A stretch of DNA of 64,000 bases from an uncultured Chloroflexia bacterium (GCA_963736895.1 CAVTQU010000008.1:119920-183919); one strand, 5' to 3'. Positions 5,310 through 59,929 are shown, counted from the stretch's first letter. Program-made: numbers and translations. The notes: generated by a model from the sequence alone, not told the origin.

Positions 5310-5339
5310 CCATTCGAGTGTACGGCGCAGACTCAGGCC

Positions 5340-6668: not shown

Positions 6669-8056
6669 CACAGCGGCGGCCCGACGAGATACCACAACCC
6701 TTCCTCTCCCTCGTCATACGGCGTGGAGAAGAAGACGTGCGGCCGCCCGAGATGGTCAACGGTGATCACCTGCGGCGGACTCGGTGCGTCATAGGCGAAA
6801 CGAGCAGAGTCGTCCAGGTGACGCGAATCGGAAGCCTCATTCGAGAGGCTCGCATACCAGAGCCCTTCATCGGAGAACTTCTCCAGCTCATGCAGCTCGT
6901 ACACGACATGCAGGGCGCCAGATGGACCGAACGCGGCGTCATCCAGGTTGCTGTCGGCGACTTGCTCCGGAGAACTCCATTCGGGCCCTTCAAGGCGAAT
7001 CGCGTATGCGCGGTACCCATGTCGTTCCTCCCACTGGTCGAAGATCACCACCGGGCGGTCGAGAGGATCGATCAAGAAGGCATCGATGCCGCCGTCGGTG
7101 TCCATATCCAGCGGTACTTCTGCCGTGCTGAGCTCATCTCCCTGTGGTGATGAGATGAATGCGCCGCCAAGGTCACCGCCATAAGCAATCCACGGAGTTC
7201 CATCCGACGCTACCTCGATCCCCGACGGGTTACCGCTTCCAATGTCGTGGATCGTCCACTGGTCAGATGGATTCGTTGCGTAGTACAGAGACGTCTCCTG
7301 TCGAGCGCGATCGAACGTACTGAAGGCCGCGTGCAGTACGCCGTCATGAACTGCGAGCAACGAACCTTGTCCCATCGGGTCGGGGAGCTTCACGGGATCT
7401 GACCAGGAACCGCCGACATTGTTGGTCACGTACTGGCCGTCATATCGACTGTGCGGCCGAGGACATTCGAATCCGCAGGGGTTGTAGAACGACCAGCGCG
7501 TGTAGGAGAACCAGAGAGAACCATCTGTGTCGACGCCGGCCCATACGAGTCCATCGGTTCCCTCGGCGGGTGGCTGGGTAAGTTGGTCTTCGCTCCAGGT
7601 TCCGCCCGAATTCGTCAGATGAACGATTCCCTCACCGCGATGGTCTGTCGAACCGAAGAGCTGCAGATTTCCCGTGGTGTCCACGATCGCCACCATTCCC
7701 CACGGAACGGTGTCGGAGATCCGGACCGCGTCTGACCACTTTGCTGTCAGTGCAGGGGTGGCTGTTGGCGGTACGGGTGTCTCAATTGGTTCTGGCGTAG
7801 GGATGGGCGTCGGGTCGGGTGTTGAGGTACGAATTGGCGGTTCAGGAGTGGCCGAGGAGCTCGGTGTAGCCACGACAGCGCCGACCGTGGCCGTAGCTAC
7901 CGGCGTGGCAGTTGCCGGCGCGACTGATTCAGCGGCGGGGCTGATTGTCGTAGTCGGTGTCGGTGTCTGTGACGGCGCCGATCCGATTGCGCAGCCCGTG
8001 AATGCAAGCGCGAGGATCAACAGTACGGACTTGTGACGGTCGCCTCGTGTGGGCAC
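6668..8056 (-). CDS. Lipoprotein with Pro/Thr-rich linker and beta-propeller-like repeats; paralog B
   Basis: Signal peptide plus lipobox AFTGC, PT-rich linker, and the same repeat architecture as 5340..6668 (GGTWSED, GGSWSDP, DGTPWIAY...). Confidence 0.6.
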   Translation of the reverse strand: MPTRGDRHKSVLLILALAFTGCAIGSAPSQTPTPTTTISPAAESVAPATATPVATATVGAVVATPSSSATPEPPIRTSTPDPTPIPTPEPIETPVPPTATPALTAKWSDAVRISDTVPWGMVAIVDTTGNLQLFGSTDHRGEGIVHLTNSGGTWSEDQLTQPPAEGTDGLVWAGVDTDGSLWFSYTRWSFYNPCGFECPRPHSRYDGQYVTNNVGGSWSDPVKLPDPMGQGSLLAVHDGVLHAAFSTFDRARQETSLYYATNPSDQWTIHDIGSGNPSGIEVASDGTPWIAYGGDLGGAFISSPQGDELSTAEVPLDMDTDGGIDAFLIDPLDRPVVIFDQWEERHGYRAYAIRLEGPEWSSPEQVADSNLDDAAFGPSGALHVVYELHELEKFSDEGLWYASLSNEASDSRHLDDSARFAYDAPSPPQVITVDHLGRPHVFFSTPYDEGEEGLWYLVGPPL

Positions 8057-8119
8057 TCGAGTGTTCTCCTGCGGCCCCCCAAACCCCGGGCGATCGTAGC
8101 CGGGCTGGCCCGATTTCCA

Positions 8120-8151
8120 TTACTGATTCGATTACTGATTCAGCTACTGAG
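8120..8151. repeat. Tandem 12-bp direct repeat, about 2.6 copies (TTACTGATTCGA / TTACTGATTCAG / CTACTGAG)
   Basis: Seen directly in the 170-bp intergenic region upstream of the lipoprotein-B start and downstream of the small secreted gene. Confidence 0.7.
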
Positions 8152-8228
8152 TGCGGGAGTGGAAACGCGTGATGAGGCCCGCCCCTTGCGGGACGAGCCT
8201 CTCGGAGGTGACCGACGGGGGGCGTCAG

Positions 8229-8483
8229 TCAGCGCTCAAAGCAGAAGTACTGCATCGCCTGGCCGGGGTTCGCCTGCTTGCCGTCGGGATGCGCCCAACC
8301 CCAGGTCGAGTTGGGGCCACCCATCGGATCGTCGGTCACCGATGCCACGAATTTGACGACCGGCCCGACGCTCCCTTCGCACTGGCCTGGCGACGCTGTG
8401 GCAAAACCGGGAACCATGGCCGCGGTCAGCATGCCGGCAGCAAGGGCGATAGAAAATCGCTTCTTCGAGATCCTCGAGAACAT
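8229..8483 (-). CDS. Small secreted protein (84 aa, signal peptide, 2 Cys), unknown function
   Basis: N-terminal signal peptide (SIALAAGMLTAAMVPGFATA); coding-like composition. Confidence 0.4.
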   Translation of the reverse strand: MFSRISKKRFSIALAAGMLTAAMVPGFATASPGQCEGSVGPVVKFVASVTDDPMGGPNSTWGWAHPDGKQANPGQAMQYFCFER

Positions 8484-8528
8484 GCCCGTCTCCTTTGATT
8501 GCTGGTCGAATGTGTTGTGGGTGGGTGA

Positions 8529-9047
8529 TCAGAGACCAAGGGCCTCGATCATGATCTGGCAGTAGAGATCCGTTTCCGACACCAGGAACGGATGCGGTCC
8601 GCCAATTACTACGACATCGGTGCCGAGGTAGTTGTCGCTGGCGTCGAAGTGGTCGTAGAAAGCGACTCGACCCACGTCGTGGCCAAGCAGGCCGCCGCCG
8701 ACCTGCCGCAGCTGCAGGGGCTGACCAACCCGAAAAGTAACGATGGTGTACGCACCATTGCCATCGTCGATGAACGCGAGCTTGCCACCGCCGGAGAAGC
8801 TCTCGACGACGCCGGCGCCGTTGACGGGGTTCGTCCACGTTCTGGCGATGTGGCCGAATGCCCTGTCGTCCCACCCGTTGAGGACGCCTTTGAACGTTAC
8901 ATCGACAGCCTCACCGGTGCCGCAAAAGTTTGGATCTGTGTCGGTTCCATTGAGCGTTTGGTGATCGGGGCCTGCAGCGAGGACCGATCCGACGCCCAGC
9001 GTTAGCACAAGAACGGCGCCGAGGGCGAGCGAAATCAACGAGCGCAT
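8529..9047 (-). CDS. Secreted protein of unknown function (signal peptide)
   Basis: MRSLISLALGAVLVLTLGVGSVLAAG signal peptide; Gly/Asp-rich mature region. The true start is probably the internal Met at 9047. Confidence 0.45.
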   Translation of the reverse strand: MRSLISLALGAVLVLTLGVGSVLAAGPDHQTLNGTDTDPNFCGTGEAVDVTFKGVLNGWDDRAFGHIARTWTNPVNGAGVVESFSGGGKLAFIDDGNGAYTIVTFRVGQPLQLRQVGGGLLGHDVGRVAFYDHFDASDNYLGTDVVVIGGPHPFLVSETDLYCQIMIEALGL

Positions 9048-9141
9048 GCGGACAGCTCCTTCCAATTGGTGAGTCAGATTTGGGTAGACGGAGTGGAGCC
9101 TGCTTACTCAGCCGGCGACGCTCGCGCGCAGTTGGTGACGT

Positions 9142-10428
9142 TCATTTCGGCAACGGGCGCCAGTTGGCGGTGCCCGAAATCGAGATTGGCAGCGTCGCGG
9201 CCGACTCCGGATTTTCCAGCGGAATGACCACGAGGTGGTCGCAGCTATTGGCCGATCCGCCGTACAGCTCCGCACCGTCTGACGACCAATCGACCCAGCA
9301 GCTTGCAATTGATCCGAGGTCTCTGACCGCACCGTCGTAAGGCGGAAGCGAAGGGTCGAAGTCAGCCACGATCACGTCCCCGTCGGCCGAGAGAAAAGCA
9401 ATCTGCAATCCATCTGGCGATAGCGAGACGCCCCAGTCGGGCACGCCTCCGACACCGTCGGACCAAATCGAGTTGCCATGCCCTGTCCCAGCGTCAAGGA
9501 CAACCTGGCTCGGCGTGCCAAAACCCGGCTGCATGGCATATCCGATTTCCTGGTCGAAGTCAGGGTCCGGGAAGAAACGGGGTTGCGAGAAGTGAGCATC
9601 GGGCGCTATCAGGCCGGCGCGCTCCACATCGTTCGTCCCATCCGGGGTTATCGGATAAATCGTGTGCAGGTCTGTGTGGATTCCATCCTTATCGGTGGAG
9701 CGGTACACGATCGTCTGGCTGTCGGGAGACCATTCGGGCAGGTCCGCCTTGGACGGACCGCTGGTGATGGGCTCGATTGCTCCGCCGTCGGCGTCATCGT
9801 CAGCTATGAAGATCCTGGAGACACCCTGATCCTCGGCCGCGAAGGCGATCCTGGAGCTGTCGCCAGACCACGAGAAGTTGGGGACATCTGTCGCCATCAC
9901 TGCCTTGCCCTGGCTGGCCTGCACCCGTTGTGACGTCCCGTCGACCGACTCGATCATCAGCCGCCCTACACCGGCGCCCGGACCATCCAAGGCCAGGTAC
10001 GCAACGCGCGTCCCGTCCGGCGAGAACACAGGTGTCGTGGCATACGACCCGGTTGTGCTCACCTGTTTGGGGTCCGATCCGTCCGGCTGCGCGACGTAGA
10101 TCACGCCGCCGTCCGCAAAAGCGATCACGTCGTCAGATGGCGCGAGGACCAGCGGGGGATGCCAGATGCGTCCTCCAAAGGCAACGGCCAAAACCACCAG
10201 AGCGAGGAGCGTCAGGACCAGCAGCAAAGCCAGAGCGGCCTGTCGCGGAATCCGCACATCAACATCAGCAGCGGGTCCTGGCAACCACCGCTGAGGGAAG
10301 CGCCATGCAGCCTTCTGCTCGACCTTATGAACAGCCGCCAGCGCGCGGTTGCGTCCGTGCTCCGATCCCCGCTCCGGACCGTCGCCGAGCCATTGCGCGA
10401 TAACCGGGTCAAGTTGCATGTCGTTCAT
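9142..10428 (-). CDS. Membrane anti-sigma factor with periplasmic TolB-like (PD40/WD40-like) beta-propeller domain
   Basis: Short cytoplasmic N-terminus, one TM helix (ALALLLVLTLLALVVLAVAF), then repeated SPDG/WSPD blades (VFSPDGTRVAY, WSGDSSRIAF, EWSPDSQTIVY, SLSPDGLQIAF). Its ATG overlaps the stop of the upstream ECF sigma (ATGA). Confidence 0.7.
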   Translation of the reverse strand: MNDMQLDPVIAQWLGDGPERGSEHGRNRALAAVHKVEQKAAWRFPQRWLPGPAADVDVRIPRQAALALLLVLTLLALVVLAVAFGGRIWHPPLVLAPSDDVIAFADGGVIYVAQPDGSDPKQVSTTGSYATTPVFSPDGTRVAYLALDGPGAGVGRLMIESVDGTSQRVQASQGKAVMATDVPNFSWSGDSSRIAFAAEDQGVSRIFIADDDADGGAIEPITSGPSKADLPEWSPDSQTIVYRSTDKDGIHTDLHTIYPITPDGTNDVERAGLIAPDAHFSQPRFFPDPDFDQEIGYAMQPGFGTPSQVVLDAGTGHGNSIWSDGVGGVPDWGVSLSPDGLQIAFLSADGDVIVADFDPSLPPYDGAVRDLGSIASCWVDWSSDGAELYGGSANSCDHLVVIPLENPESAATLPISISGTANWRPLPK

Positions 10429-10983
10429 CGCGATCGTTCCCCGAGCGCGTCGACTGGCGCCACCGGCGTTGACTTCAGCGCGGCTCGCATCGCACGGATA
10501 CCGCGGTGCAGCCGCGAATAGACAGTTCCAATCGGTATGCCGAGTGCCTGACTCACCTCCGGTGCGGACATTCCCACGTAGTGCGTGAGAACCAGGACGG
10601 CACGTTGCTCCACAGGCAGTTGCAGGAATCCCCGCTCGAGCTCATCAACGTTCACCACCGTTGCGTAGTCGTCGGCGGGATCGCTGTGATCTGCCGAGAT
10701 ATCCGCCACCTCAACCTCGAAGCGTCGGCCCTTCCTGGATTGGTCGTGGCACGCGTTGACGAGAAGCCGGTAAATCCAGGCCTCGAATCGCTCGGGGTCT
10801 CTCAGCGAGCGGAGATCTCGCCAGCCGCGAATCAAGTGCTTCCTGGACCACGTCCTCGGCCGCATATCCGTCGCGGAGGATTCGTCGCCCGATCGCGTAC
10901 AGGCGGTCGTACATGCCGATCGCCAAAGCGTCGAAGGCGTCTCGGTCCCCTGCCTGAGCGCGCTGGACGAGATCCGTCCTCAC
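10425..10983 (-). pseudogene. ECF (sigma-70 family) RNA polymerase sigma factor, apparent single-base frameshift
   Basis: N-terminal region-2 part sits in frame 10711..10983 (VQRAQAGDRDAFDAL...AEDVVQE). C-terminal region-2/4 part sits in frame 10425..10865 (IRGWRDLRSLRDPERFEAW...GTVYSRLHRG). The break is at about 10838, where CTTGATT replaces an expected CTGATT, compared with the intact paralog at 12961..13518. Confidence 0.7.
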
Positions 10984-11599: not shown

Positions 11600-12960
11600 T
11601 CATGGCTGGGAAGCCTCCGGTGGCTGCGACTCCCCGGGTGGCCGGGACGCCTCCGGCTGGGATCGCCAGCTTGCAGCGCCGGTGATGATCATCGGCAGGG
11701 TTTCGGCAGCCGTGGGATTGGCGAGCGAAACCACAACGATGTGGTCGCAGGAGCCAGGCGAGCCGCCGTACAGGCTCTGGCCATCCGGTGACCATGCCAC
11801 CCAGCACTCGATCACCTTTCCGAGGTGCGGAGCATCGCCGTTGTAAGGGTGAGCAGATGAAGTGAAGCCAGAGTCGAATTCAGCAACGACCACGCCATCG
11901 TCCGTGAGCATCGCCACCAGGCTCTTGTCCGGCGACCAGGGAATTCCCTGTTCGTTGTCGCTGACGACACCGGTATCTGGCAGCGCGCCTTGAGGTCCGG
12001 TGCCCGTGTCGAGGAAAGCCTCCGTATCGGCGCCGAACCCGACATTCAGCGCATAGGAAAGGACCGTCGTCCCCACGTACGCCGGCAACATCACGGGCCC
12101 CCACAGAGGTCGTGAGATGCTGCCGTCGGCCGCGACGATTCCGGTCCTCACCACGTCGCCGGTGCCGAGGTTATCTGCCACTCCTGCGTCCGGGTGGATC
12201 TGGCGGATATCGGTGTGAAGGCCGTCGTCGTTTCTCCGTCGGTATGCGATCAGGGTCCCGTCCGCGCTCCAGTCGGGCAGGTCGGCTGACACGGAACCGT
12301 CAGTGACTGGCTCGAGCGAGCCGCCGCCAGCGGCGACGATGAACAGCTGTGCCGCTCCGTCCTTCGTGGCGGAGAAGACAAGACGAGTGCTGTCCCCGGA
12401 CCACGAGAACTGATTGGTTTCAGACGGCGTGAGAACCAGGCCGCCGCTGACGTTGATCGGCGGCGCTGAGCCGTCGAAAGGTACGACCATGAGTAGACCG
12501 TCCAGCGAGCCAGCAGCGGCGGGCGCCGTGAAGGCGATCATCTTGCCGTCAGGCGAGAAGACGGGCGTGCGGCCAAACGGAACGCCGCCACTCACCTTAC
12601 GCTGCCTCCGATCCGTCGCGCGCCGCGACGGTGATCGAGTCTTCATCCTGGATAGACGAAGACGTCACCAGATGGCCCAACTGGAAGCAGGTTGCGACGC
12701 GAGCCGACAAACGCCACCGCCAGAGCCAGCAGCAACAGAAGCGTTAGTGCCACCAGGACGCCGATGCGAGCCACGGTCGACGGTCGTCCATCCAGGCCAA
12801 CCAATGGGCTGGGCAGCCAGCGCTCCGGGAACGTCCAACCGGGCCGTTGCGACACGGACTCTGCGGCGACCAATGCGTTGGCCAAGCCCTCGCGAGGCGC
12901 GGCTTCCACATCATCGTTGAGCCAGGCCATCACCACGGGATCGAGGCGATCGCTAGTCAT
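11600..12960 (-). pseudogene. Anti-sigma factor with TolB-like beta-propeller (paralog of 9142..10428). Fused in frame to the upstream sigma and broken by about two frameshifts near 12590..12650
   Basis: The anti-sigma N-terminus (MTSDRLDPVVMAWLND...TM helix) continues in the sigma frame. The propeller (VFSPDGKMIAF, WSGDSTRLVF, DWSADGTLIAY, WSPDGQSLYG) sits in a second frame (ORF 11600..12646). A third frame supplies a DEDSITVAARDGSEAA segment. Confidence 0.6.
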
Positions 12961-13518
12961 CGAACGTTCTCCGGTACAGGTGATTCCGGCTATGTCGAGT
13001 TCTGAATTGGACAGCGCGGTGCGCATGCTGCGGACGCCGTAGTGGAGCCGCGAATAGACGGTCCCAACGGGAATGCCCAGGATCTGACCCACCTCGCTGG
13101 CCGGCAGGCCGACGTAATGAGTCAGGACCAGGACCGCGCGATGCCCTACGGGGAGCTTGAGGAAGGCTCTTTCCAGCTCGTCACGTTGTGCGACGCGCGC
13201 GTAGTCGTCTGAGGGATCAGGTCGATCAACATCGATCTCCCGCACCTCGACGGCGAAGCGACGACTGCTCCGCGACTGGTCGTGACACGAGTGGACCAGC
13301 AAGCGATGAAGCCAGGCGTCAAATCGAGCTGGGTCGCGCAGGGAGCGCATGTCTCGCCAGCTGCGGATCAGGGTTTCCTGGACAGCGTCCTCCGCCAAGT
13401 GGCTGTCCCGCAGGATGCGACGTGCGATGCCGTACAGGCGCTCATAGGCAGCTGTCGCGAGCGCCTCGAAGGCCTCCCGATCACCTGACTGAGCCCGTAC
13501 GACGAGTTCGGACGTCAC
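12961..13518 (-). CDS. ECF sigma factor (intact sigma domain); reads through in frame into the anti-sigma N-terminus
   Basis: Regions 2 and 4 complete (VVRAQSGDREAFEAL...LHYGVRSMRTA). Locus 1 has TCGCGATGA (stop overlapping the start); this locus has TCGATGA. The 2-bp difference removes the stop and fuses the sigma to the anti-sigma. Confidence 0.7.
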
Positions 13519-26250: not shown

Positions 26251-26766
26251 ATGCGCATCGCGGTCGTCGTAAGCCTCTGGCTGTTCGTCGCCTGTGGCGG
26301 ACCAACTCCCGCGCCGAGCGTCGGTCCCGTTGTCTCGACCTTCGAAGACGCCACAATGTCCTTCGAATACCCCAGCAACTGGAACGCCCTGGTTCCCGAA
26401 TCCGGGGATCCGGCCCTGGTCGTCCTTTCGACCGAACCACTGGCCACGACTGAGCCCCGCATCGCGAAGCTACAGAGGGACGGCGTTTACCTGGCTTGGA
26501 CGACGCTGACCACGGCGCCTGCAACAACCCCCGATCCCAGCTTCAGCTCCGAAGTGACCGTTGGCGGCCGGCCGGCAACGGCGTCTCAGCAGCTTGCGCA
26601 GGGCGATTGCGCAGCGCTCGACGGAACCGAGCTGCTGACGGTAGTCGTCGAGTCACCCGGCTCAGCGCAGGACGTCCAAATGCAGGCGTGTGTCCAGGGA
26701 CCAAACGTGGAGCTCACGGGCGCCACAATCGCCGGCATGCTGGCCAGCGTCCACTGGAAGAACTAG
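26251..26766 (+). CDS. Lipoprotein, unknown function
   Basis: Signal peptide plus lipobox LFVACGG; 171 aa. Confidence 0.5.
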   Translation: MRIAVVVSLWLFVACGGPTPAPSVGPVVSTFEDATMSFEYPSNWNALVPESGDPALVVLSTEPLATTEPRIAKLQRDGVYLAWTTLTTAPATTPDPSFSSEVTVGGRPATASQQLAQGDCAALDGTELLTVVVESPGSAQDVQMQACVQGPNVELTGATIAGMLASVHWKN

Positions 26767-42395: not shown

Positions 42396-43775
42396 ATGAG
42401 ATCGATGGCACCACTCCTGGTATTCGTGGCCGTCGTGAGCGGTGCCTGCGGTGCCACGACACCCACGCCAGCATCGCAAGCGCCGACGCCCCCGCCGACT
42501 ACCACCTCGACGTTCTCGCCGACGGCCTCGCCGGCGCTGCAGCCGCCTTCGACGAGTCCTTCTGCAACCACCCCCGCGACGCCAGCCGTTTCGCGGACAA
42601 CAGGGTGGCAAAGCGATATCGCCGCGCTCGTGCCCGGAATGGATGCCCTCCACCCAGAGCTCGACCACGGCGTGTCGCTCAACGATCTGAACTCAGCTGC
42701 AGCCGACCTGATCACCCGGGTCCCAACCGCAACCGACGACGAGCTGATGGCCGGCGTGCTGCGGATCGTGGCGATGGTCAGTCGCGAGGGTTGTGAGGCT
42801 CACACCGGCGCATACCTGTGGGGCAGCGAAAGCTACCCCGTCCACAGCCTGCCGCTACGACTCTGGCTGTTCGGCGATGACGTCTACGTGGTCGACGCAC
42901 TGCCGCCGTATGAGGACCTGGTGGGCCAGCGAATCGATTCCGTCAACGGCCACGTGATGGCTGACATGTTCACAACCTTGGAGCCCCTCATCCCGCGCGA
43001 CAACGACCAGACGGTGCGGTTGCTGATGCCGCGGTTCCTTCTGACCACCGAGATCCTGCATGGCGCAGGCCTCATCGAAAACGTCGATTCCGTCGATCTC
43101 TTGTATGGCACGTCGACGCGTAATCCGCTGCAGGTGACGGTGAATGCGATCCCGATGTCCCACTACAACGCGTGGGCTGGCCAGTACGGGCTGCACCTGC
43201 CGGAGAATCCTGACGTTCCGTATCTGTCCGACATCGATGGGCTGCTCTGGCACAGCGGGCCAGACGAGAACGGAACGTTGTACGTGCAGTACAACCGCGT
43301 TGATCCGCTCGGTCCCAATGCGCTCAGCGATTGGCTGGAAGACCCTGCCACCAAGACTCTTGTCCTGGACATCCGACACAACTTTGGCGGCGAGCTGTCC
43401 GCCCTCGAGCCTGTCGTGTTCGCGGTGGACACGTTCGCGGCCGCTCATCCGGCGAGCACCTATGTGATCACGGGTCGCAACACCTTCTCGGCCGGCAGCA
43501 TGTTGGTTGGACGCCTCAAGGCGGAGACGGACGCTCTGGTCGTCGGTGAAGGGATGGGCGGCTGTCCCGCGCCGTGGGCTGATCCCGGGCAGCTTCAGTT
43601 GCTTTACAGCGGCATTGCCGTGAGCGTCGCGACGCTCCACGAGCTGGGCGCGATCCCGAACGACACGCGCCTGACCATCTCGCCCGACATTCCCGCTGAG
43701 CTGACAGTGGACGAATGGGCACAGGGCATCGACCCGGCCATGGTCGCCATTGACCAGGCCCAGGTCGCCCAGTGA
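42396..43775 (+). CDS. Lipoprotein with S41-family (C-terminal processing / tail-specific protease-like) peptidase domain
   Basis: Lipobox VVSGACG, PT-rich linker, then LVLDIRHNFGGE ... TFSAGSML (S41 Ser region). Confidence 0.6.
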   Translation: MRSMAPLLVFVAVVSGACGATTPTPASQAPTPPPTTTSTFSPTASPALQPPSTSPSATTPATPAVSRTTGWQSDIAALVPGMDALHPELDHGVSLNDLNSAAADLITRVPTATDDELMAGVLRIVAMVSREGCEAHTGAYLWGSESYPVHSLPLRLWLFGDDVYVVDALPPYEDLVGQRIDSVNGHVMADMFTTLEPLIPRDNDQTVRLLMPRFLLTTEILHGAGLIENVDSVDLLYGTSTRNPLQVTVNAIPMSHYNAWAGQYGLHLPENPDVPYLSDIDGLLWHSGPDENGTLYVQYNRVDPLGPNALSDWLEDPATKTLVLDIRHNFGGELSALEPVVFAVDTFAAAHPASTYVITGRNTFSAGSMLVGRLKAETDALVVGEGMGGCPAPWADPGQLQLLYSGIAVSVATLHELGAIPNDTRLTISPDIPAELTVDEWAQGIDPAMVAIDQAQVAQ

Positions 43776-45148: not shown

Positions 45149-46846
45149 CTAGAGCAGCTCCCCGTGGGCCGAACCGGTCGGCTCGCCATCGCGTGGCCGC
45201 GGCTCCTCGCCGGGCGGGTAGGTCTTCCCGTTCGTTGCACTGCCGCCGTTTGCCGCCTCGGCCGGCAGAACCGGCAGGACCGGCAACGCCGGACGGGCCG
45301 AGCCCTCGATCGCGCCGACGCCGTATGGCGTCCACTTGTCCGATTGCTGGAGTCGGTGCGGCTCGACATTGCCGCGCGAGTGGACCTCCGCGAAGTTGGT
45401 TGGCTCGATCCACATTCGCTCGCCGTTGAGCAGGCCGAGCACGCCTGACTGGCCGGGCTCGGGTCGCGCAGACTGGCACGACTTGCAGCGCGACTTGTCG
45501 TGCTGCTCGTAGGTCAGCGGCTCTTCGTACGTAGTGATGTAGCCCTCGTAGTTCCGGAGCACGACCTTGTGGTCGGAATAGCTGATCAGGTAGTTGGGCA
45601 TCACCGGGATCTTGCCGCCACCACCGGGCGCATCGACGACGTACGTCGGAACGGCATAGCCGGATGTGTGGCCGCGCAGCCCTTCCATGATCTCGAGACC
45701 CTTGCCGACTGGCGTCCGGAAGTGGCCCGAGCCCTCGACCAGGTCGCACTGGTAGATGTAGTAGGGCCGGACGCGCATCTCGACCAGGCGGTGGACGAGG
45801 TCGCGCTGGATGTTGACGCAATCGTTGACGCCCGCCAGCAGGACCGACTGGTTGCCCACCGGGATGCCCGCGCGGGTGAGCTTGTCGACGGCTCGCGCGA
45901 CCTCGGGCGTGATCTCGTTGGGGTGGTTGAAGTGCAGGTTCATCCAGATCGGGTGGTACTTGGCGAGCATCTCGCACATCTCGTCGTCAACGCGCTGGGG
46001 CATGAACACCGGCACCCGCGAGCCGATCCGGATGATCTCGATGTGCGGGATCTCGCGCAGGCCGCGGATGATCGTTTCGAATAGCTTGGGCGCGAGCGTC
46101 AGGCCGTCGCCGCCACTGATGAGGACGTCACGTACCTGCGGCGTACGACGGAGGTAGTCGAGCTGCGCCTCGTGCTCGGCGCGGTTGAAGTTCTGGGTTG
46201 GGTCGCCAACGATGCGCGACCGGGTGCAATAGCGGCAGTAGCTGGCGCACTGAGTAGTGACGAGCATCAGCACGCGGTCCGGGTAGCGGTGAACGAGGCC
46301 CGGCACCGGGGAGTGACGATCCTCGGCCAGCGAGTCCTCCATCATCCCGGTGAACGCGGTGTGCTCGCGGCCCAGCGGGATCACCTGGCGACGGATCGGG
46401 TCGTCGGGATCGTCAGGGTCCATGAGGCTGATGAAGTAGGGCGTGATATCGACGCGGAACTTGTCCGGCGCCGAGAGGCCCTCGCGCTCCTCATCGGTCA
46501 GGTTGAGGATCTGCTCAATCTCGGCGAGATCGTTGACTCGATGGGACAGCTGCCATCGCCAGTCGTTCCACTTCTCGTCAGGAACGTCCGCCCACAGCGA
46601 CGCGCGGCGGCTGACCTGCGGCAGGCCGTCCGGGCCAAGCCGCCGCGCCGGATCGCGCTGGTTCACAAAGGTGTCTTCGCCGACCGTTACTTCCAAGCTT
46701 GCACGCCTCACGCGAAACGGATTTGGCTTCGCAGTCGGCCTGCGGGCCGCTGCTGCGCGTCGATCGCGAGCCTCCGCACGCGCGGATGCTCGCATCCTCC
46801 TTGCGACTGCATATTCCTTATGCAGGCTGGATAGAAACGAGATCAT
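45149..46846 (-). CDS. kamA: L-lysine 2,3-aminomutase (radical SAM, KamA family)
   Basis: Near-collinear with clostridial KamA: WADVPDEKWNDWRWQ, radical-SAM CASYCRYC, PLP-Lys region, YYIYQCDLVEGSGHFR, VVDAPGGGGK. True start probably near VSRRASLW (about 46670). About 100-aa Pro-rich C-terminal extension. Confidence 0.85.
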   Translation of the reverse strand: MISFLSSLHKEYAVARRMRASARAEARDRRAAAARRPTAKPNPFRVRRASLEVTVGEDTFVNQRDPARRLGPDGLPQVSRRASLWADVPDEKWNDWRWQLSHRVNDLAEIEQILNLTDEEREGLSAPDKFRVDITPYFISLMDPDDPDDPIRRQVIPLGREHTAFTGMMEDSLAEDRHSPVPGLVHRYPDRVLMLVTTQCASYCRYCTRSRIVGDPTQNFNRAEHEAQLDYLRRTPQVRDVLISGGDGLTLAPKLFETIIRGLREIPHIEIIRIGSRVPVFMPQRVDDEMCEMLAKYHPIWMNLHFNHPNEITPEVARAVDKLTRAGIPVGNQSVLLAGVNDCVNIQRDLVHRLVEMRVRPYYIYQCDLVEGSGHFRTPVGKGLEIMEGLRGHTSGYAVPTYVVDAPGGGGKIPVMPNYLISYSDHKVVLRNYEGYITTYEEPLTYEQHDKSRCKSCQSARPEPGQSGVLGLLNGERMWIEPTNFAEVHSRGNVEPHRLQQSDKWTPYGVGAIEGSARPALPVLPVLPAEAANGGSATNGKTYPPGEEPRPRDGEPTGSAHGELL

Positions 46847-47329: not shown

Positions 47330-47896
47330 ATGAGAACCGTCACTGTTTCATGGGATAAGCAACAGGAACGATTTGTCGCGCTCGGCACGCACCGCGGGCG
47401 CGAGATCGTTATCAACGCGCCGGGTGAACCAGGCAGCGGCCGTGCGCCGACCGGTTTCAGCGCCACCGAGCTCCTGCTCGCGGGTGCGGGTGCATGCGCC
47501 GCATGGGACGTGGTCGAGATCCTGCGCAAGCGACGCGCCCAGGTTGCGAGCCTCGCCGTGACAGTGGAGGGCGATCAGCAGCCCGATCCGCCGTGGACCT
47601 ACAACCGAGTTGCGCTCCACTTCCGAGTCGAGTGCCAGGACATGCAGCTGCCGGTCCTTGCGCGCGTGATCCGGCTCAGCATGGTGCGTTACTGCTCGGT
47701 AATCACGACCATCTCCGGCGTCGCATCCATTGAGGCGACCGTTGAGCTGGTCAAGCCCGACGGTTCCACCAGCGGCCGACAGCCCATCGAGCTGGCCATT
47801 CCCGCAGTGCCTCCGGCCGCCATCGCGGCCAAGGACGCCGCTGTCCTGGGCCTTGCCGAGCCGGCCGCCGACGAGGACGGGCCGGCGCTCGGCTGA
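47330..47896 (+). CDS. OsmC/Ohr-family protein with Ala/Pro-rich C-terminal tail
   Basis: Two conserved Cys (GAGACAAWD ... VRYCSVITT), about 140-aa core. Confidence 0.7.
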   Translation: MRTVTVSWDKQQERFVALGTHRGREIVINAPGEPGSGRAPTGFSATELLLAGAGACAAWDVVEILRKRRAQVASLAVTVEGDQQPDPPWTYNRVALHFRVECQDMQLPVLARVIRLSMVRYCSVITTISGVASIEATVELVKPDGSTSGRQPIELAIPAVPPAAIAAKDAAVLGLAEPAADEDGPALG

Positions 47897-47955: not shown

Positions 47956-50900
47956 GTGAACCTTTTCCACCGCCTCGGCTTCTTCTGCGCGCGTCACCGA
48001 TGGGCTGTCATCACGGTGTGGGCGGTTCTCCTGTTGGCGGCCATTCCGTTCGCGCCGCGGCTACCCGGTGAGTTGCGCTCGGGCGGCTTCTCGCTCAACG
48101 ACCTCGAGGCTTCGCGGGCGCGGCAGCTCCTCGAGAGCGGCCTCAACGTTCCGCCGTCGGCGATGGTCATCCTGATCCAGAGCCAGACCGACGCTCGTGC
48201 CGGCGATCCGGCGTTCGAGGCGGCGGCCGCGCAGGCATTGGCACGCGTCCCCACAGCCGAACACGTGGCCGGCCTGCTGACTCACCAGCTGGCACCGCGC
48301 CAGATCAGCGCCGACGGCAAGACGGTCTACGAGATCGTGGCGCTCGACCTTCCGCCCGATGATTCGCCACTCGCCCTTGATCCGGTGCGTGACGCGATCA
48401 CGCAGGTTCCCGGCTACCAGGTCTACCTCGCCGGCGGTCCGGCGTTCTACGGCGACATCCAGGTGCTCTCCGAGCACGACCTGCAACGGAGCGAGTTCAT
48501 CTCGCTGCCGCTTGCAGCTCTCGCGCTGCTGCTCGTCTTCGGCAGCCTGATCGCCGCCGGCGTGCCCATCGTCGTCGGTGGGTCGGCCGTCCTCGTCGCC
48601 CTCGGGGCACTCTTCTTCGTGGCCGAGCGGACCCCGTTGAGCATCTTCGTGCTCAACCTGGCGACGTTGCTCGGGCTGGGCCTGGGAGTCGACTACGCCC
48701 TGTTGTTGACCAGCAGGTTCCGGGAGGAGCTTGGCGCGCGTGCCGGCGGCCGCACTCCTGATGGGGCCGTCGACCAGCAGGCGGTCAACGAGGCCGTGGC
48801 CGCGACGGTCGCCACCGCTGGCAGAGCGGTCTTCTTCAGCGGCCTGACCGTCCTCCTCGGGTTGATCGGGCTAATCCTCTTCGAGTTCATGGTCCTGCGG
48901 TCGGTAGGCATTGCCGGTGCGGCCGTTGTTGCGGTCGCTGTCGCGGCTGCGATCACGCTGCAGCCCGCCGTCCTTGCGGCTCTTGGTCCGAGGGTCAATT
49001 CGTACCGGATTCGACTTCGACGCCGCAAACCCGACACGCCGCAGGGGCAAACCAGCGGCGCCTGGGCTCGCCTGGCAAATCGGGTGATGGATCGGCCGCT
49101 GCTGTTCTTCATCCCCACGCTGGGATTGCTGCTCGTGCTCGGATCGCCATTCCTGCACGTTCGCTTCAACGCTCCCGACGCGTCGATCCTGCCGCCCAAC
49201 GTCCCCTCGCGCCAGGCGTACGACCTGCTGGTCAACGACTTTGGCGAGGGCGAGTTCGCGCCGCTGCTGGTGGCCATACGAACGGACGGGCCGGCCACGG
49301 ACCCGGCGAATGTCGGGGCGCTGTACGACTACTCACGTCGCCTGGCCGCGGATCCGCGAGTCGGCCGCGTGGAGGGGATGGTCGATGTCGATCCGCGGCT
49401 GGGCCGCGACCAGTACCAGCTGCTCTACTCCGCGCCGGGCGGACCGGCCGACAGATTCGTCGCTGACGCGCTGCGGCGCTCGACCAACGGCGACCTGACG
49501 GCTTTCACCGTCTACACGCCGTACGGCCCCAACCGAGCCGAGGCCCAGGCGCTGGTCCGCGACATGCGGAACCCGGCGTCGGGGATCGCGCCGCCGGCCG
49601 GCATGACCGTCCTCGTCGGCGGCGGGGCGGCCGAGGTGAGCGACGTCGTGACGCGCATCGGCCAGGACTTCCCACGCTCGGCGTTGTTCATCCTCGTCTC
49701 TACGTACCTGGTCCTCTTCGTGCTGCTCCGGTCGGTCGTCCTGCCGGCAAAGGCGCTGATCGTCAATGCGCTGTCGATCACCGCGTCGTTCGGAGCACTG
49801 GTCTGGATCTTCCAGGACGGCAACCTGTCGGCACTCTTCAACTTCCTGCCGCTGGGCTTCGTGGAAACGACCCTGCCGGTAATCCTGTTCTGCGTCCTCT
49901 TTGGGCTGTCCATGGACTACGAGGTCTTCCTCCTGTCGCGCATGAAGGAGGTCTACGACCAGACGCACGACAACCGCCTGGCAGTGGCCCGGGGCATGGA
50001 GCGCAGCGGTCGCATCGTGACCTCGGCGGCACTGATCGTGGTCGTCGTGGCGGGGTCCTTCGCGTTCGCCGACATCGTGTTGATCAAGGCACTCGGCCTG
50101 GGCGTGGCCATCGCGGTGGCGCTCGACGCGACCGTTGTTCGGGCCCTGCTGGTGCCATCGACGATGCGCTTGCTGGGCGACCTCAACTGGTGGATGCCTG
50201 AGCGACTTCGGCGCGTCCTCCCACCTGTCGTGGCTTGTCTCTTCCTGGTCGGCTGCACTGCAAACGGCCGCATCTTGAGCAACGAGCCGACGCCAAGACC
50301 AACCCTGCCACCTGCCACGGCGGCGCCGGCGCCCGTTGCGGATCCTGTGCCGATCGTCTTTCCGCGCGACGAGGCAACGCACGACCGACTGACCGAGTGG
50401 TGGTACTACACCGGCCACCTTCAAGCAGACGACGGTCAGAAGTTCGGCTTCGAGTTCGTCGTGTTCCGCGCCGAACGCGGCGCCTTCCCGGTCAGCTGGG
50501 CTTCGCACCTTGCCCTGACCGATGAGAGCGGGCAGCGATTCCTGTACGACCAGCGATCGGAAGTTGGGCCACAGGTGAGCCAGCTGTTTCCAACGGACAC
50601 CGAGCGTGGCTTCGACTTGGCCATTCGAGGTGGGTTCGATCCGACAGGCTCAGGGGCAGAGGGCGAGCCCGGCCTGCCGTGGACCATGAGCGGCGTGGGC
50701 GGTCATGACACGCTCTCCGCAGCCACGGACGGGTTCGCGCTCGACCTGTCGCTGACGGACACCCGAACTCAACCCGTGCTTCACGATGACGACGGCTGGG
50801 TCGATTTCGGACCGGCTGGTGGCTCGTACTACTACTCGCGGCCGCGAATGGACGCGACGGGCTCGCTGACGCTCGACGGAAACGCGATGACGGTCACTGG

Positions 50901-51354
50901 CACGGCATGGTTCGACCACCAGTGGGGGGACTTCATCGCAGTGGGCGGCGGTGGCTGGGACTGGTTCGCGGTGAACCTCGCTGACGGGACGGATCTGACG
51001 ATGTCGCTCGTACGCGCCGCCGACGGCAGCTACCCGTTGGTGTACGGCACGCTCGTCCACGCCGACGGCACCTTCGAGCACCTCACCTCAGACGCGTTCC
51101 AGATCACGCCGACCGGCTCGTGGACCAGCCCGCACACGGGCGCCACGTACCCATCGGGCTGGACGGTGAACGTTCCCGGACAGGACCTCACGATCCAACT
51201 CATGCCAACGTTGCAGGACCAGGAGCTGGACACGCGTGCGTCGACGGGCGTCGTCTACTGGGAAGGGTCACAGGTGGTCGAGGCGACCAGGGGCGGCCAG
51301 CCGGTGGAGGGTGAGGCGTATGTGGAGCTGACCGGCTACCCGACTACGAATTGA
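47956..51354 (+). CDS. MMPL-family RND transporter fused to a C-terminal CrtC/AttH-like (lipocalin-like, hydroxyneurosporene-synthase family) domain
   Basis: 1132 aa in one frame. Residues 1 to about 745 are MMPL (12 TM, two periplasmic loops, typical C-terminus LLGDLNWWMPERLRRVLP). A lipobox-like LFLVGC and PT linker follow. The last ~340 aa have EWWYYTGHL...FGFEFVVFR...WFDHQWGDF, characteristic of the AttH/CrtC family. Confidence 0.75.
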   Translation: MNLFHRLGFFCARHRWAVITVWAVLLLAAIPFAPRLPGELRSGGFSLNDLEASRARQLLESGLNVPPSAMVILIQSQTDARAGDPAFEAAAAQALARVPTAEHVAGLLTHQLAPRQISADGKTVYEIVALDLPPDDSPLALDPVRDAITQVPGYQVYLAGGPAFYGDIQVLSEHDLQRSEFISLPLAALALLLVFGSLIAAGVPIVVGGSAVLVALGALFFVAERTPLSIFVLNLATLLGLGLGVDYALLLTSRFREELGARAGGRTPDGAVDQQAVNEAVAATVATAGRAVFFSGLTVLLGLIGLILFEFMVLRSVGIAGAAVVAVAVAAAITLQPAVLAALGPRVNSYRIRLRRRKPDTPQGQTSGAWARLANRVMDRPLLFFIPTLGLLLVLGSPFLHVRFNAPDASILPPNVPSRQAYDLLVNDFGEGEFAPLLVAIRTDGPATDPANVGALYDYSRRLAADPRVGRVEGMVDVDPRLGRDQYQLLYSAPGGPADRFVADALRRSTNGDLTAFTVYTPYGPNRAEAQALVRDMRNPASGIAPPAGMTVLVGGGAAEVSDVVTRIGQDFPRSALFILVSTYLVLFVLLRSVVLPAKALIVNALSITASFGALVWIFQDGNLSALFNFLPLGFVETTLPVILFCVLFGLSMDYEVFLLSRMKEVYDQTHDNRLAVARGMERSGRIVTSAALIVVVVAGSFAFADIVLIKALGLGVAIAVALDATVVRALLVPSTMRLLGDLNWWMPERLRRVLPPVVACLFLVGCTANGRILSNEPTPRPTLPPATAAPAPVADPVPIVFPRDEATHDRLTEWWYYTGHLQADDGQKFGFEFVVFRAERGAFPVSWASHLALTDESGQRFLYDQRSEVGPQVSQLFPTDTERGFDLAIRGGFDPTGSGAEGEPGLPWTMSGVGGHDTLSAATDGFALDLSLTDTRTQPVLHDDDGWVDFGPAGGSYYYSRPRMDATGSLTLDGNAMTVTGTAWFDHQWGDFIAVGGGGWDWFAVNLADGTDLTMSLVRAADGSYPLVYGTLVHADGTFEHLTSDAFQITPTGSWTSPHTGATYPSGWTVNVPGQDLTIQLMPTLQDQELDTRASTGVVYWEGSQVVEATRGGQPVEGEAYVELTGYPTTN

Positions 51355-51714: not shown

Positions 51715-53359
51715 CTAGTAGTCGAGCAGCCCCTGCGAACCGTCACGCATCTGGTCGATGACGAACTGCCCGCCATCGGCGATCGAAACGAGGTTCGGCT
51801 GCGAGTCGATGATCAGCGTGGTGTGGAAATCGATCTGCACCAGCTGGCTGCCGTTGAACGTCAGCTCGGGGATCACGCTCATCATCGTCGACTGGCGGAA
51901 GTCCTGGTCGAAGATCAGGTTGCCCAGCGAGTACATGACGACGTGGCCGTCGATGTCCTCCATCGCCCCGGCGATGTGCGAATGGGCGCCGATCACCATG
52001 TCCGCACCTGCCGCGATCCACTCGTTGGCGAGATCGCGCTGGTAGCTCGCCGGTGTGGGCTTGTACTCGATCCCCCAATGCGGGAATACGATGACGACGT
52101 CTGCCGTCTCCTTGACCCGGCGAACTTGGCCGGCGATGTCGCTCTGCTTGCAGTTGTTTGTGCCGACCTCGTCGGGCCCTTTAACGGTCCAGCCAGGCCT
52201 GATCGCATCGCACGAGATGATCGCCACGCTTGTGCCATTGACCTCGAAACGGCCCGGCTGCGACGCGTCGTTGCCCTTGCCGCCGCCGCTGTGTTCGATT
52301 CCGCGCAGGTCGAGTTGTTCCTCCGCGGTGAGGATGCCGCGGCCACCGGCGTTGCGAACGTGGTTGTTGGCCAGCGACATGAAATCCAGTCCTGCCTTGT
52401 GAACGGAATCGAGCAGCGACGCGTCTGCTGTAAAGGTCAGGCCGCCCGCATGGTAGGGCGCGTCGACCAGTACGGCCGACTCGAGGTTGGCCATGGCGAT
52501 GTCGCCGCCGGAGAGAAGGTCGCGCAATGCTGCCGCCGTTCCCGGTGCGGTCCGTGGTGGGATACGGATAGCCGAAGTAGGAACAGCACTTGATGCCGGT
52601 CACCCTGGCCGTGCCGCCATCGAACAGGTAATCGCCGCTCTGGCCGTGATTCTTGACGGCCAGCGCTACGCCACGATCCATCATCACGTCACCGGCGGCA
52701 ACCAGGGTCCACAGCGTGGACTGATCCCAGGCGGTGTCCGAGAGAACCTGCGCGGTGAGCGGCCATTCGCTCACGTCCGCCACGCGGTCGTTCCCGAACA
52801 GGTAAGTGCCGTCGACCGCCAGGGCGTTCATCTGTTTGTCGACTTGCGTGGCCCTCACAACGCCCAGGGCCCCGTCCTTGACGGCCGCGGCGAGCTCATC
52901 GGCCGAGACCTGGTCGAGCTCGGTCCCGCCGAGGAGTCCACCGATGACGTCGGCATCCTCCGGCGAGACGACAACGCGTGGGTAATGGTCGTGGCTGCCC
53001 GATGCCGCGGCGCGAAGGTCGGCCATGGAGATCGAAGACGTGGTCGACCAGAAGTCAACGACCGGCACGAACGGCATCTCGACCGCGGACGGCGGAACCG
53101 GCGTTGGGGAAGGGGTTGGGGTGGGAGTCGCCGATGCAGGTGTGGCGGGATTCGAGCTTGGCTCGGTCGCCCTGGGTTGTTCGCTTGAATCTGGGTTGCT
53201 CGTGGTCATCGAATTCGCGGGTGATGGACGCGCCGCAACGATGGTTGCCGTAGCTGAGGCGGCGGGCGCGGCGGGCTTGTTGAAGAACGCGACGAAACCG
53301 ACGAGCGCGATCAGCGCAACAGCGACCGCTGCGACTAGAAGCCCCCGGTTAGCAGACAC
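51715..53359 (-). pseudogene. CapA/PgsA-family membrane-anchored metallophosphatase-like protein (poly-gamma-glutamate capsule biosynthesis family), apparent frameshift at about 52560
   Basis: N-terminal TM, PT linker and first half in frame 52181..53359 (TLWTLVAAGDVMMDRGV). Second half in frame 51715..52527 (SLANNHVRNAGG, IVFPHWGIEY, IGAHSHI). One extra A at GGGAACGG explains the shift. Confidence 0.65.
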
Positions 53360-53408: not shown

Positions 53409-53485
53409 TGGCGGACCCGACCGGATTCGAACCGGCGATCTCCAGCGTGACAGGCTGGCATGTTGGGCCGCTACACCACGGGTCC
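53409..53485 (-). tRNA. tRNA-Asp (anticodon GTC), CCA encoded
   Basis: Reverse complement: GGACCCGTGGTGTAGCGGCCCAACATGCCAGCCTGTCACGCTGGAGATCGCCGGTTCGAATCCGGTCGGGTCCGCCA. Cloverleaf with anticodon loop CTGTCAC and T-loop GGTTCGAATCC. Confidence 0.85.
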
Positions 53486-59853: not shown

Positions 59854-59929
59854 GCGCCCGTAGCTCAGCGGATAGAGCGTCTGCCTCCGGAGCAGAAGGC
59901 CGTGGGTTCGAGTCCCGCCGGGCGCGCCA
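59854..59929 (+). tRNA. tRNA-Arg (anticodon CCG), CCA encoded
   Basis: GCGCCCGTAGCTCAGCGGATAGAGCGTCTGCCTCCGGAGCAGAAGGCCGTGGGTTCGAGTCCCGCCGGGCGCGCCA; D-loop AGCTCAGCGGATAGAGC, anticodon loop CTCCGGA. Confidence 0.85.

Follow-up and report, generated by a model that had tools for sequence, protein, structure and literature searches.

An uncultured soil bacterium of the Chloroflexota is the source of the 64,000-nucleotide stretch of DNA analyzed here (GCA_963736895.1, CAVTQU010000008.1:119920-183919), which we refer to as the window. Within it, one open reading frame (ORF) encodes an MMPL-type transporter joined to an AttH-like domain through what looks like a lipoprotein signal (Table 1). An earlier note on this DNA, made from the sequence alone, had described the ORF as an MMPL protein continuing in frame into a CrtC/AttH-like domain, and this description stands at the same coordinates. 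The translation contains every motif quoted at the time (LLGDLNWWMPERLRRVLPPVVACLFLVGCTANG, EWWYYTGHL, FGFEFVVFR and WFDHQWGDF), three Pfam families match it, and the raw DNA across the junction (50100-50400) holds neither a stop codon nor a change of frame. Pfam also supplies the domain boundaries that the note had called for: PF03176 (MMPL) matches in two stretches (E 4e-87, 292.7 bits against a cutoff of 20.5), PF07143 (CrtC_N) covers residues 813-991 (E 1e-34, 121 bits, cutoff 22.5) and PF17186 (Lipocalin_9) covers residues 999-1128 (E 1e-38, 133 bits, cutoff 26.2). The latter two, both above cutoff, follow each other in the order that is canonical for the AttH-like two-barrel family. NCBIfam returned only generic MMPL/HAE3-type similarity for the ORF, and no specific model for the C-terminal domain was found there. 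The G+C content at third codon positions (GC3) is even across the ORF at 0.84, and an exact-sequence lookup of the protein returned zero records.

Table 1. Coordinates of the fused ORF, its parts and its two upstream neighbors in the window
Feature	Position	Strand	Basis
Whole fused ORF, 1132 aa, GTG start: MmpL3-like RND transporter, internal lipoprotein signal, Pro-rich linker, AttH-like two-barrel domain	47956..51354	+	ORF listing, Pfam, homologs
MMPL transporter module, residues 1-746, ending at the invariant NWW (744-746)	47956..50193	+	Pfam, hydropathy, AlphaFold2 helices, Foldseek, phmmer
Asp246-Tyr247, TM4 dyad, likely proton relay	48691..48696	+	Invariant in 92 sequences; aligns to the DY of MmpL3 GLGIAIDYGLFIVSRFREE
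Asp654-Tyr655, TM10 dyad, likely proton relay	49915..49920	+	Invariant; aligns to MmpL3 GLSTDYEVFLVSRM
Positive n-region MPERLRR, residues 747-753, predicted cytoplasmic	50194..50214	+	Net charge +1 to +5 in 121/121
h-region and lipobox VLPPVVACLF-LVGC, residues 754-767; Cys767 codon TGC at 50254-50256, predicted lipidation and signal peptidase II site	50215..50256	+	Conservation, PS51257
Pro/Thr-rich unstructured tether, ~45 residues (768-812)	50257..50391	+	AlphaFold2: no secondary structure, low pLDDT
Barrel 1, CrtC_N (PF07143), residues 813-991; EWWY (814-817), SYYYS (957-961), AWFDHQWG (984-991)	50392..50928	+	Pfam, structure
Asp987, equivalent of the essential CrtC Asp268	50914..50916	+	Local alignment; conserved in 110/112 diverse family members
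Barrel 2, Lipocalin_9 (PF17186), residues 999-1128; invariant W1001-D1002-W1003	50950..51339	+	Pfam, conservation
Lysine-2,3-aminomutase (KamA)-like radical SAM gene (LAM_C), 565 aa predicted, ~190 residues before Radical_SAM	45149-46846	-	Neighbor in 59/80 loci
OsmC-like (peroxiredoxin-type) gene, 60 nt upstream of the ORF, possible operon partner	47330..47896	+	Pfam OsmC, E 3.5e-14

The two modules

Hydropathy and the helices of an AlphaFold2 (AF2) model place 12 transmembrane (TM) segments in the transporter, at residues ~14-37, five within 178-345, 377-402 and five within 571-737, with two large periplasmic loops after TM1 (~38-177) and TM7 (~403-570). Like MmpL3 of Mycobacterium, it therefore has the 12-TM MMPL/RND build with two small periplasmic domains, and since the segments number 12, as in MmpL3, the chain should be cytoplasmic from residue ~738 onward. 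The N-terminal 750 residues matched MmpL3 structures in Foldseek with TM-scores of 0.83-0.87 on the target at 28-31% identity, and phmmer aligned them to MmpL3 7NVH with an E value of 2e-84. The Asp-Tyr dyads of MmpL3, which form its proton relay (PMC7458404), are both present. With 12 TM segments, the MmpL3 fold and both dyads kept, the transporter looks competent as judged from sequence and model. It is not an MmpL3 equivalog, however, since NF052608, the model for the trehalose monomycolate exporter, scored 330 bits against a cutoff of 1400, and the fusion protein's transporter lacks the cytoplasmic C-terminal domain that MmpL3 has. The Chloroflexota host, unlike mycobacteria, is not known to have mycolic acids.

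A separate AF2 model of the C-terminal domain (predicted local distance difference test, pLDDT, 87) begins with ~45 unstructured residues and continues as two beta-barrels resembling 2ICH, which answers the earlier suggestion that the structure of this domain be predicted. 2ICH is also its only sequence match (phmmer E 1.4e-41, 32% identity). The Foldseek neighbors of the model are, in order, 2ICH (TM-score 0.82), kievitone hydratase 7A0T (TM-score 0.73), 25-phosphosteroid lyase and the decalin-forming pericyclases Fsa2, Phm7 and CghA; by modeled fold, the characterized relatives are all enzymes that act on hydrophobic substrates. The domain shares its two-barrel fold and sequence family with NE1406 ('putative AttH', the protein of 2ICH), with AttH of the Agrobacterium attEFGH genes and with COG5621, and the motifs EWWY, SYYYS, AW.D.(Q/E)W and GWDW are common to it and to NE1406 and AttH. 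Those proteins, for which a role in lipid handling has been proposed (PMC2954199), differ in being separate polypeptides with a genomic link to ABC transporters of the LolD/FtsX type. Across 111 diverse standalone relatives (36-65% identity), ~20 polar or aromatic positions are nearly invariant: D805, H809, E814-W-W-Y817, S957-Y-Y-Y-S961, W985, D987, H988, W1001-D-W1003, E1090, Y1101-W-E1103 and E1124.

PF07143 and the fold are also common to the domain and to a set of hydratases, namely the carotenoid 1,2-hydratase CrtC (EC 4.2.1.131), kievitone hydratase 7A0T and the archaeal hydroxy-GDGT (glycerol dialkyl glycerol tetraether) synthase Hgs. The catalytic block of CrtC reads RHRWGPIAP...GHAYLDSNEGDE...EWDW (PMC4717167 supplement), and His239, Trp241, Tyr266 and Asp268 are essential in RgCrtC (PMC4717167). 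This block aligns to SYYYSRP...GTAWFDHQWGDF...GWDW of our domain with the same 27-residue spacing, which conserves the essential aspartate, as D987, and the downstream WDW motif; the other three residues are replaced (H239 by Y958, W241 by Y960 and Y266 by W985). With three of the four catalytic residues differing, we rejected the presence of a full CrtC active site. The ligand-binding lipocalin that the earlier note saw in this domain is possible but is not the sole option, given that the characterized fold relatives are enzymes and that the catalytic Asp of CrtC is conserved.

A conserved fusion with split orthologs and an invariant lipobox

The full protein sequence was searched against 5.8 billion proteins, and the best 120 clusters were considered. 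All but one combine MMPL, CrtC and Lipocalin_9 in ~1100-1300 aa at 62-95% identity; the exception (P0010, 95% identity) is truncated at 946 aa and has no Lipocalin_9 match. The clusters come from JGI, ENA, NCBI and Logan assemblies, and where they carry a name it is just 'MMPL family transporter' or 'RND superfamily putative drug exporter', the sources being mostly Candidatus Limnocylindrales/Chloroflexota. An exhaustive search without a profile, using the C-terminal domain alone, gave 5791 representative clusters at E<=1e-3. Among the best 150 of these there is one full-length fused representative (P0014), and most others are standalone proteins of 330-420 aa, along with some shorter fragments and a few fragments of fusions; most open with a lipoprotein signal peptide.

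Scanning one genome per GTDB species for the locus gave 539 relatives, with the best 80 loci coming nearly all from metagenome-assembled genomes (MAGs) of Limnocylindria/Chloroflexota. Eighty loci were classified, comprising the best scan loci and the metagenome contig L001 (one locus, L046, has no anchor and was left unclassified). The fused form occurs in 18 and a split form, with separate MMPL and AttH-like genes, in 62, so that both of the arrangements the earlier note had proposed to look for exist, each in short-read-style and in long-read-style contigs. Its statement that AttH-like proteins are usually separate partners of transporters holds as far as separateness goes; the link made before was to ABC transporters and not to MMPL proteins. 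In the split loci, the MMPL protein ends in ...NWWMPxxLERFVxxRLPASEAEVEAAxR and a stop codon; from there to the lipobox Cys codon downstream it is 47-113 nt in most loci and more in a few. The gene for the AttH-like lipoprotein, publicly labeled 'predicted secreted hydrolase', follows in the +1 frame in 60 of the 62, the stop and start overlapping or abutting. In L001, the contig of the closest standalone protein (P0121, 65% identity), this gene comes directly after an orthologous MMPL gene ending in ...NWWMPATLERFVANRLPASEADVEAAAR and a stop, and the TGA of the one overlaps the ATG of the other (ATGA). The divergent KamA-like neighbor accompanies 12 of 18 fused and 47 of 62 split loci, and because it is common to both, we take fused and split loci to be positional orthologs.

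Some loci stand out. One MAG, JBJMMR01, holds both a split and a fused locus (L053 and L078), either as true paralogs or as a mixed co-assembly bin. The split locus L037 (~5935) has an MMPL tail of the fused type, RLPLGEGA before the stop, which would fit either a recent break of a fusion or an indel error. In split locus L068 (~5826), the lipoprotein lies in the MMPL frame with in-frame stops in between, and AASMSRVDEP is duplicated.

Junctions were counted in 121 fused proteins, the window's own and its 120 homologs. Cys767 is conserved in all 121 and is likewise invariant in the 92-sequence alignment, preceded in the window by an uncharged 13-residue segment, VLPPVVACLFLVG. Position -1 of the lipobox is G or A in 120, position -3 is L, V or I in 116, and position +1 is S or T in 108. 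The PROSITE core pattern PS51257, {DERK}(6)-[LIVMFWSTAG](2)-[LIVMFYSTAGCQ]-[AGS]-C with a positive n-region before it, matches 121 of 121 junctions and none of the 203 other cysteines of the same proteins, bearing out the lipobox-like linker of the earlier note. What sets this signal apart is its place: the PROSITE rule expects the Cys at 15-35, and here it is residue 767, behind 12 TM helices. Counted from after NWW, the cysteine agrees with the position rule in 71 of 121, and in the 62 split orthologs the matching signal is N-terminal. The hydrophobic (h) region is 13 aa long in the window and 13-22 aa in fused forms, as against 9-28 aa in the signal peptides of split forms; the median is 14 for the 121 fused proteins, 18 for the 18 fused loci and 14 for the split forms, and 66 of the 121 (the window included) have 13-14 residues. 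AF2 gives the whole protein a pLDDT of 86 and a predicted TM-score (pTM) of 0.81, with residues 754-771 below pLDDT 50 and not modeled as a helix.

There are at least three or four types of fused junction, all of which keep the lipobox: the short one of the window, two long ones that resemble split tails (RRFISTRLHLPETA... and ARWIAARLPVVEGATLVQ...) and another that begins RRVPRIETAGIAG.... The compact junction of the window, NWWMPERLRRVLPP...LVGC, recurs in, for example, P0001 (87% identity), P0010 (95%), P0003-P0013, L004, L005, L007 and L083. Beyond the cysteine, the distance to EWWY is 45-48 aa in the 121 fused proteins and 45-53 aa across fused and split loci, and the tether holds the motif G-R-I-L-(A/S)-N-E-P and the lead-in DP.P..FPRDEA.HDRLT. 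Conservation on this scale argues that the junction signal is under selection, and by sequence and model it resembles a signal peptide more than a TM anchor. The fusion is genuine and evolutionarily maintained.

Right after the lipobox cysteine (50257-50290, residues 768-778), fused and split forms alike (L001, L004-L083) carry C-(S/T)-x-x-G-(R/P)-(I/L)-L-A-N-(E/D/P)-P. The AF2 model is disordered here, neither of the other two lipoproteins in the window has the motif, and a role in docking or sorting is conceivable. Those two predicted lipoproteins, at 26251-26766 (+) and 42396-43775 (+), have canonical N-terminal signals (MRIAVVVSLWLFVAC... and MRSMAPLLVFVAVVSGAC...), each followed by a Pro/Thr-rich linker, and the second has a weak Peptidase_S41 match. 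Since the window encodes two ordinary lipoproteins, the organism evidently uses the lipoprotein pathway.

A proposed export module

The reading that we consider reasonably probable is that the locus encodes an export module made up of a proton-driven, MmpL3-like RND lipid exporter and its dedicated lipoprotein partner. The partner domain would cross the membrane, receive a lipid at Cys767 and probably be cut free by signal peptidase II, and would then accept, and possibly modify, the exported lipid. In this lineage, the stop codon would have been lost from an ancestor with adjacent genes while the lipoprotein signal peptide survived as an internal element. The 12 TM helices would insert with both ends cytoplasmic, as in MmpL3; the Arg-rich stretch after NWW would stay inside, and the 13-residue hydrophobic segment would serve as an N-in/C-out signal for translocation of the 365 residues behind it. 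Lgt would then add diacylglycerol to Cys767, for which the strict conservation of a canonical lipobox across differing junction types argues. Signal peptidase II (LspA) would most likely cut before Cys767, yielding the same two products as the two-gene form: a transporter extended at its C-terminus by one short membrane segment, and an AttH-like protein anchored by lipid, the two arising side by side in 1:1 stoichiometry. Given lipidation, we put cleavage at somewhat better than even, because the h-region has the length of a signal peptide, no helix is predicted there, and fused and split forms appear to interchange easily. The earlier idea of a dedicated extracytoplasmic partner domain fits the lipobox, the split lipoprotein orthologs and the AttH fold.

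Once outside, the two-barrel domain on its tether of conserved length (~46 residues) would receive a hydrophobic substrate, possibly an isoprenoid, lifted from the membrane by the transporter; the tether would bring it to the point at which lipid is believed to leave the periplasmic cavity of MmpL3-type pumps. The domain would then hand the substrate on or modify it, the latter by hydratase- or lyase-type chemistry through Asp987. An isoprenoid lipid is a reasonable guess because of the known chemistry of the AttH/CrtC family, whose hydratases act on isoprenoid C=C bonds; an AttH-like protein, for example, hydrates archaeal tetraether lipids (bioRxiv 10.1101/2025.10.20.683597). The C-terminal domain differs from these hydratases in that it is predicted to be extracytoplasmic, lipid-anchored and coupled to a transporter, and the known hydratase activity lies outside the AttH-type subgroup. 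Elsewhere in the family, P0129, an AttH-like lipoprotein encoded on its own and 49% identical to the domain, sits in a same-strand cluster of Caroten_synth (PF04240), AttH, cytochrome P450 and EamA transporter genes (L084, 4984-9432), which hints at carotenoid or isoprenoid modification for P0129. The DNA around two more standalone relatives, P0133 and P0164, was too short to be informative. The boldest form of the proposal, in which Lgt and then signal peptidase II split one precursor at the internal lipobox and the released AttH-like lipoprotein is an export-coupled, outer-face isoprenoid-modifying enzyme of the hydratase or lyase type, is speculative and, taken whole, rather doubtful.

Several established systems resemble this arrangement in part. 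MmpL3 is aided at the outer face by a lipoprotein, LpqN (PMC7458404); the Chloroflexota partner has an unrelated AttH-like fold and a gene adjacent to or fused with that of the pump. In mycobacteria, MmpL10 is reported to be paired with Chp2, an outer-face lipid-modifying enzyme encoded alongside it (PMC4183827), and Rv1410c with LprG, a lipid-binding lipoprotein also encoded alongside (PMC10745849). In those systems, and as we propose here, lipid maturation is divided between the membrane sides. They involve other protein families, and neither a fusion nor an internal lipobox is known there. The transporter module also has a weak Foldseek match to NPC1, an RND-type sterol transporter. NPC1 co-operates with NPC2, a small beta-rich lipid-binding protein. 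This pair is an analogy only, as transport runs the opposite way, the partner has an unrelated fold and the proteins are separate.

A number of results weigh against the export module as proposed. Searches of the literature for signal peptidase II cleavage behind 12 TM helices, or for an internal lipobox, gave no precedent. No lgt or lspA match was found in the window and ~1 Mb of related loci by motif or tblastn with E. coli queries, a sample small enough to be uninformative. A rough neighbor-joining tree, weak as it is, divides the fused forms into two clusters and a singleton, which hints that fusion or fission happened more than once. As to catalysis, the CrtC active site is incomplete as described above, 2ICH itself has no known activity, and the genes around the MMPL-AttH gene in the window, L002 and L003 include none for lipid or carotenoid biosynthesis. 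The genes that do flank it (OsmC, KamA-like radical SAM, DUF202, PGA_cap, beta-lactamase-fold and others) give no clue to a substrate. A single origin of the fusion was also considered, but a tree this weak gives no reliable number of events.

The junction admits other explanations. The earlier note had offered a 1-bp error merging an MMPL gene and a downstream lipoprotein gene as its alternative, and two observations favor such an artifact: split relatives are offset by +1 frame at exactly this point, and the window has at least one frameshifted gene (PGA_cap, ~52526-52566). The junction itself (NWWMPERLRRVLPP-h-LVGC), however, lacks both the MMPL tail of the split type (RLPASEAEVEAAxR) and the lipoprotein's own Met/Arg n-region, so it cannot have arisen from a split locus by one indel. 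The compact form moreover recurs in dozens of independent assemblies at 62-95% identity and GC3 is uniform, and we regard an artifact as extremely improbable. Nor is the lipoprotein at all likely to be made separately from an internal ATG at 50194 (Met747) nested in the long ORF. From Met747, MPERLRRVLPPVVACLFLVGC conforms to the full PROSITE lipoprotein rule, but the residue after NWW is Met in only 49 of 121 proteins (L in 57, I in 13, V and A in 1 each), it lies within the conserved MMPL C-terminal motif NWW-x-P that is found in split forms and MmpL3 too, the DNA upstream shows by eye no apparent Shine-Dalgarno-like purine run, and the long-junction fused forms have their Cys 31-47 residues after NWW with no Met between. 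Slightly less likely still is a cytoplasmic C-terminal domain that feeds substrate to the transporter from inside. The chain is cytoplasmic after 12 TM helices, and MmpL3 does have a cytoplasmic C-terminal domain (PMC7458404); against this, a positive n-region, a hydrophobic segment and an invariant lipobox follow at once, and lipoprotein or secretory signals stand at the N-terminus of the split orthologs and of most of ~150 family representatives. Transporters with fused substrate-binding domains are known among ABC importers of the OpuA/GlnPQ type. A permanent fusion of this design, with the hydrophobic segment as a 13th membrane pass, the AttH-like domain covalently tethered and Cys767 either lipidated and uncleaved or kept for another reason, has a smaller but appreciable chance of being right. 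It would suit the h-regions of up to 18-22 residues in the longer junction types, and the pTM of the full-length model hints at a defined inter-domain arrangement. Yet a plain tether does not call for a Cys that never varies, with G/A at -1 and L/V/I at -3, across junction types; a stable TM helix would normally be longer than h-regions of 13-14 residues, which match the signal peptides of split forms; AF2 models no helix there; and repeated switching between fused and split forms in close relatives is easiest if the mature products are equal.

A second choice concerns what the AttH-like domain does. It may be a non-catalytic lipid acceptor or chaperone like LpqN/LprG for mycobacterial transporters, LolA or, for NPC1, NPC2, and we give this a substantial chance that stops short of even. 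The lipocalin-like double barrel suits the role, as does the loss of most CrtC catalytic residues, and lipoprotein partners of MmpL3 such as LpqN are known (PMC7458404). From buried glycerol/CHES ligands and ABC-transporter neighbors, the authors of 2ICH proposed ligand binding and lipid transport; the barrels are nonetheless without the large open cavity of classical lipocalins (PMC2954199). Nearly invariant polar and aromatic residues of the kind found here (D987, H988, D1002, E1090, E1103 and E1124 among ~20) are also more typical of an active site, and the characterized proteins with this two-barrel fold are enzymes. The Chloroflexota are generally held to have a single membrane. If so, there would be no second membrane as a destination for the lipid. 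Between acceptor and modifier we lean slightly to catalysis, because the fold relatives are enzymes and the polar constellation is conserved.

The work adds three points: fused and split forms coexist as orthologs, an internal lipoprotein signal is invariant among the fusions, and the AttH family is linked to MmpL3-like exporters. The last of these, which we draw from gene arrangement, is new, as no paper on an MMPL-AttH (MMPL-lipocalin) pairing or fusion was found in the literature. The AttH-like family (DUF2006/COG5621) is large and has had a crystal structure since 2006, yet its bacterial members outside CrtC are without established function. The fusion together with its split orthologs forms a 'Rosetta stone' that ties one AttH subgroup firmly to an MmpL3-like lipid exporter and points to lipid export at the outer face, and to chemistry dependent on Asp987, as the place to look. 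For lipoprotein biogenesis, an invariant lipobox behind 12 TM helices is unusual. Processing of this lipobox would show that an internal signal is open to Lgt and LspA and that pairs of this kind can be fused or separated as genes at almost no cost. In the boldest form of the proposal, signal peptidase II is a polyprotein-processing protease, and the AttH/COG5621 family would gain its first transporter-linked role. The system would also offer an experimentally tractable model for the hand-off of lipids from MmpL-type pumps to their partners, a question that MmpL3 raises as well. Practical impact is limited, the hosts being uncultured soil and freshwater Chloroflexota.

Neighboring genes and other features of the window

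The two genes upstream of the fused ORF differ in their distribution. No functional link between the KamA-like gene and the MMPL-AttH module is evident. The OsmC-like gene also lies upstream in L002 and L003. It is present in 8 of 18 fused versus 3 of 62 split loci, and so roughly tracks the fused form. Downstream, a gene with a PGA_cap (CapA-like) match at 51715-53359 (-) is interrupted: the alignment of its L003 homolog starts in frame -3 (53083-52526) and continues in frame -1 (52566-51736), consistent with a pseudogene or an assembly indel.

Elsewhere, the region at ~5300-10500 has a G+C content of ~61% compared with 65-69% in the rest of the window and contains several minus-strand ORFs of lower GC3, and it may have been horizontally acquired. 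Among these ORFs are some for proteins with PD40 beta-propeller repeats and others lacking any Pfam match, and a gene for an extracytoplasmic function (ECF) sigma factor adjoins them (12643-13518). Rfam and ARAGORN identified two RNA genes in the window, tRNA-Asp(GTC) at 53409-53485 (-) and tRNA-Arg(CCG) at 59854-59929 (+).

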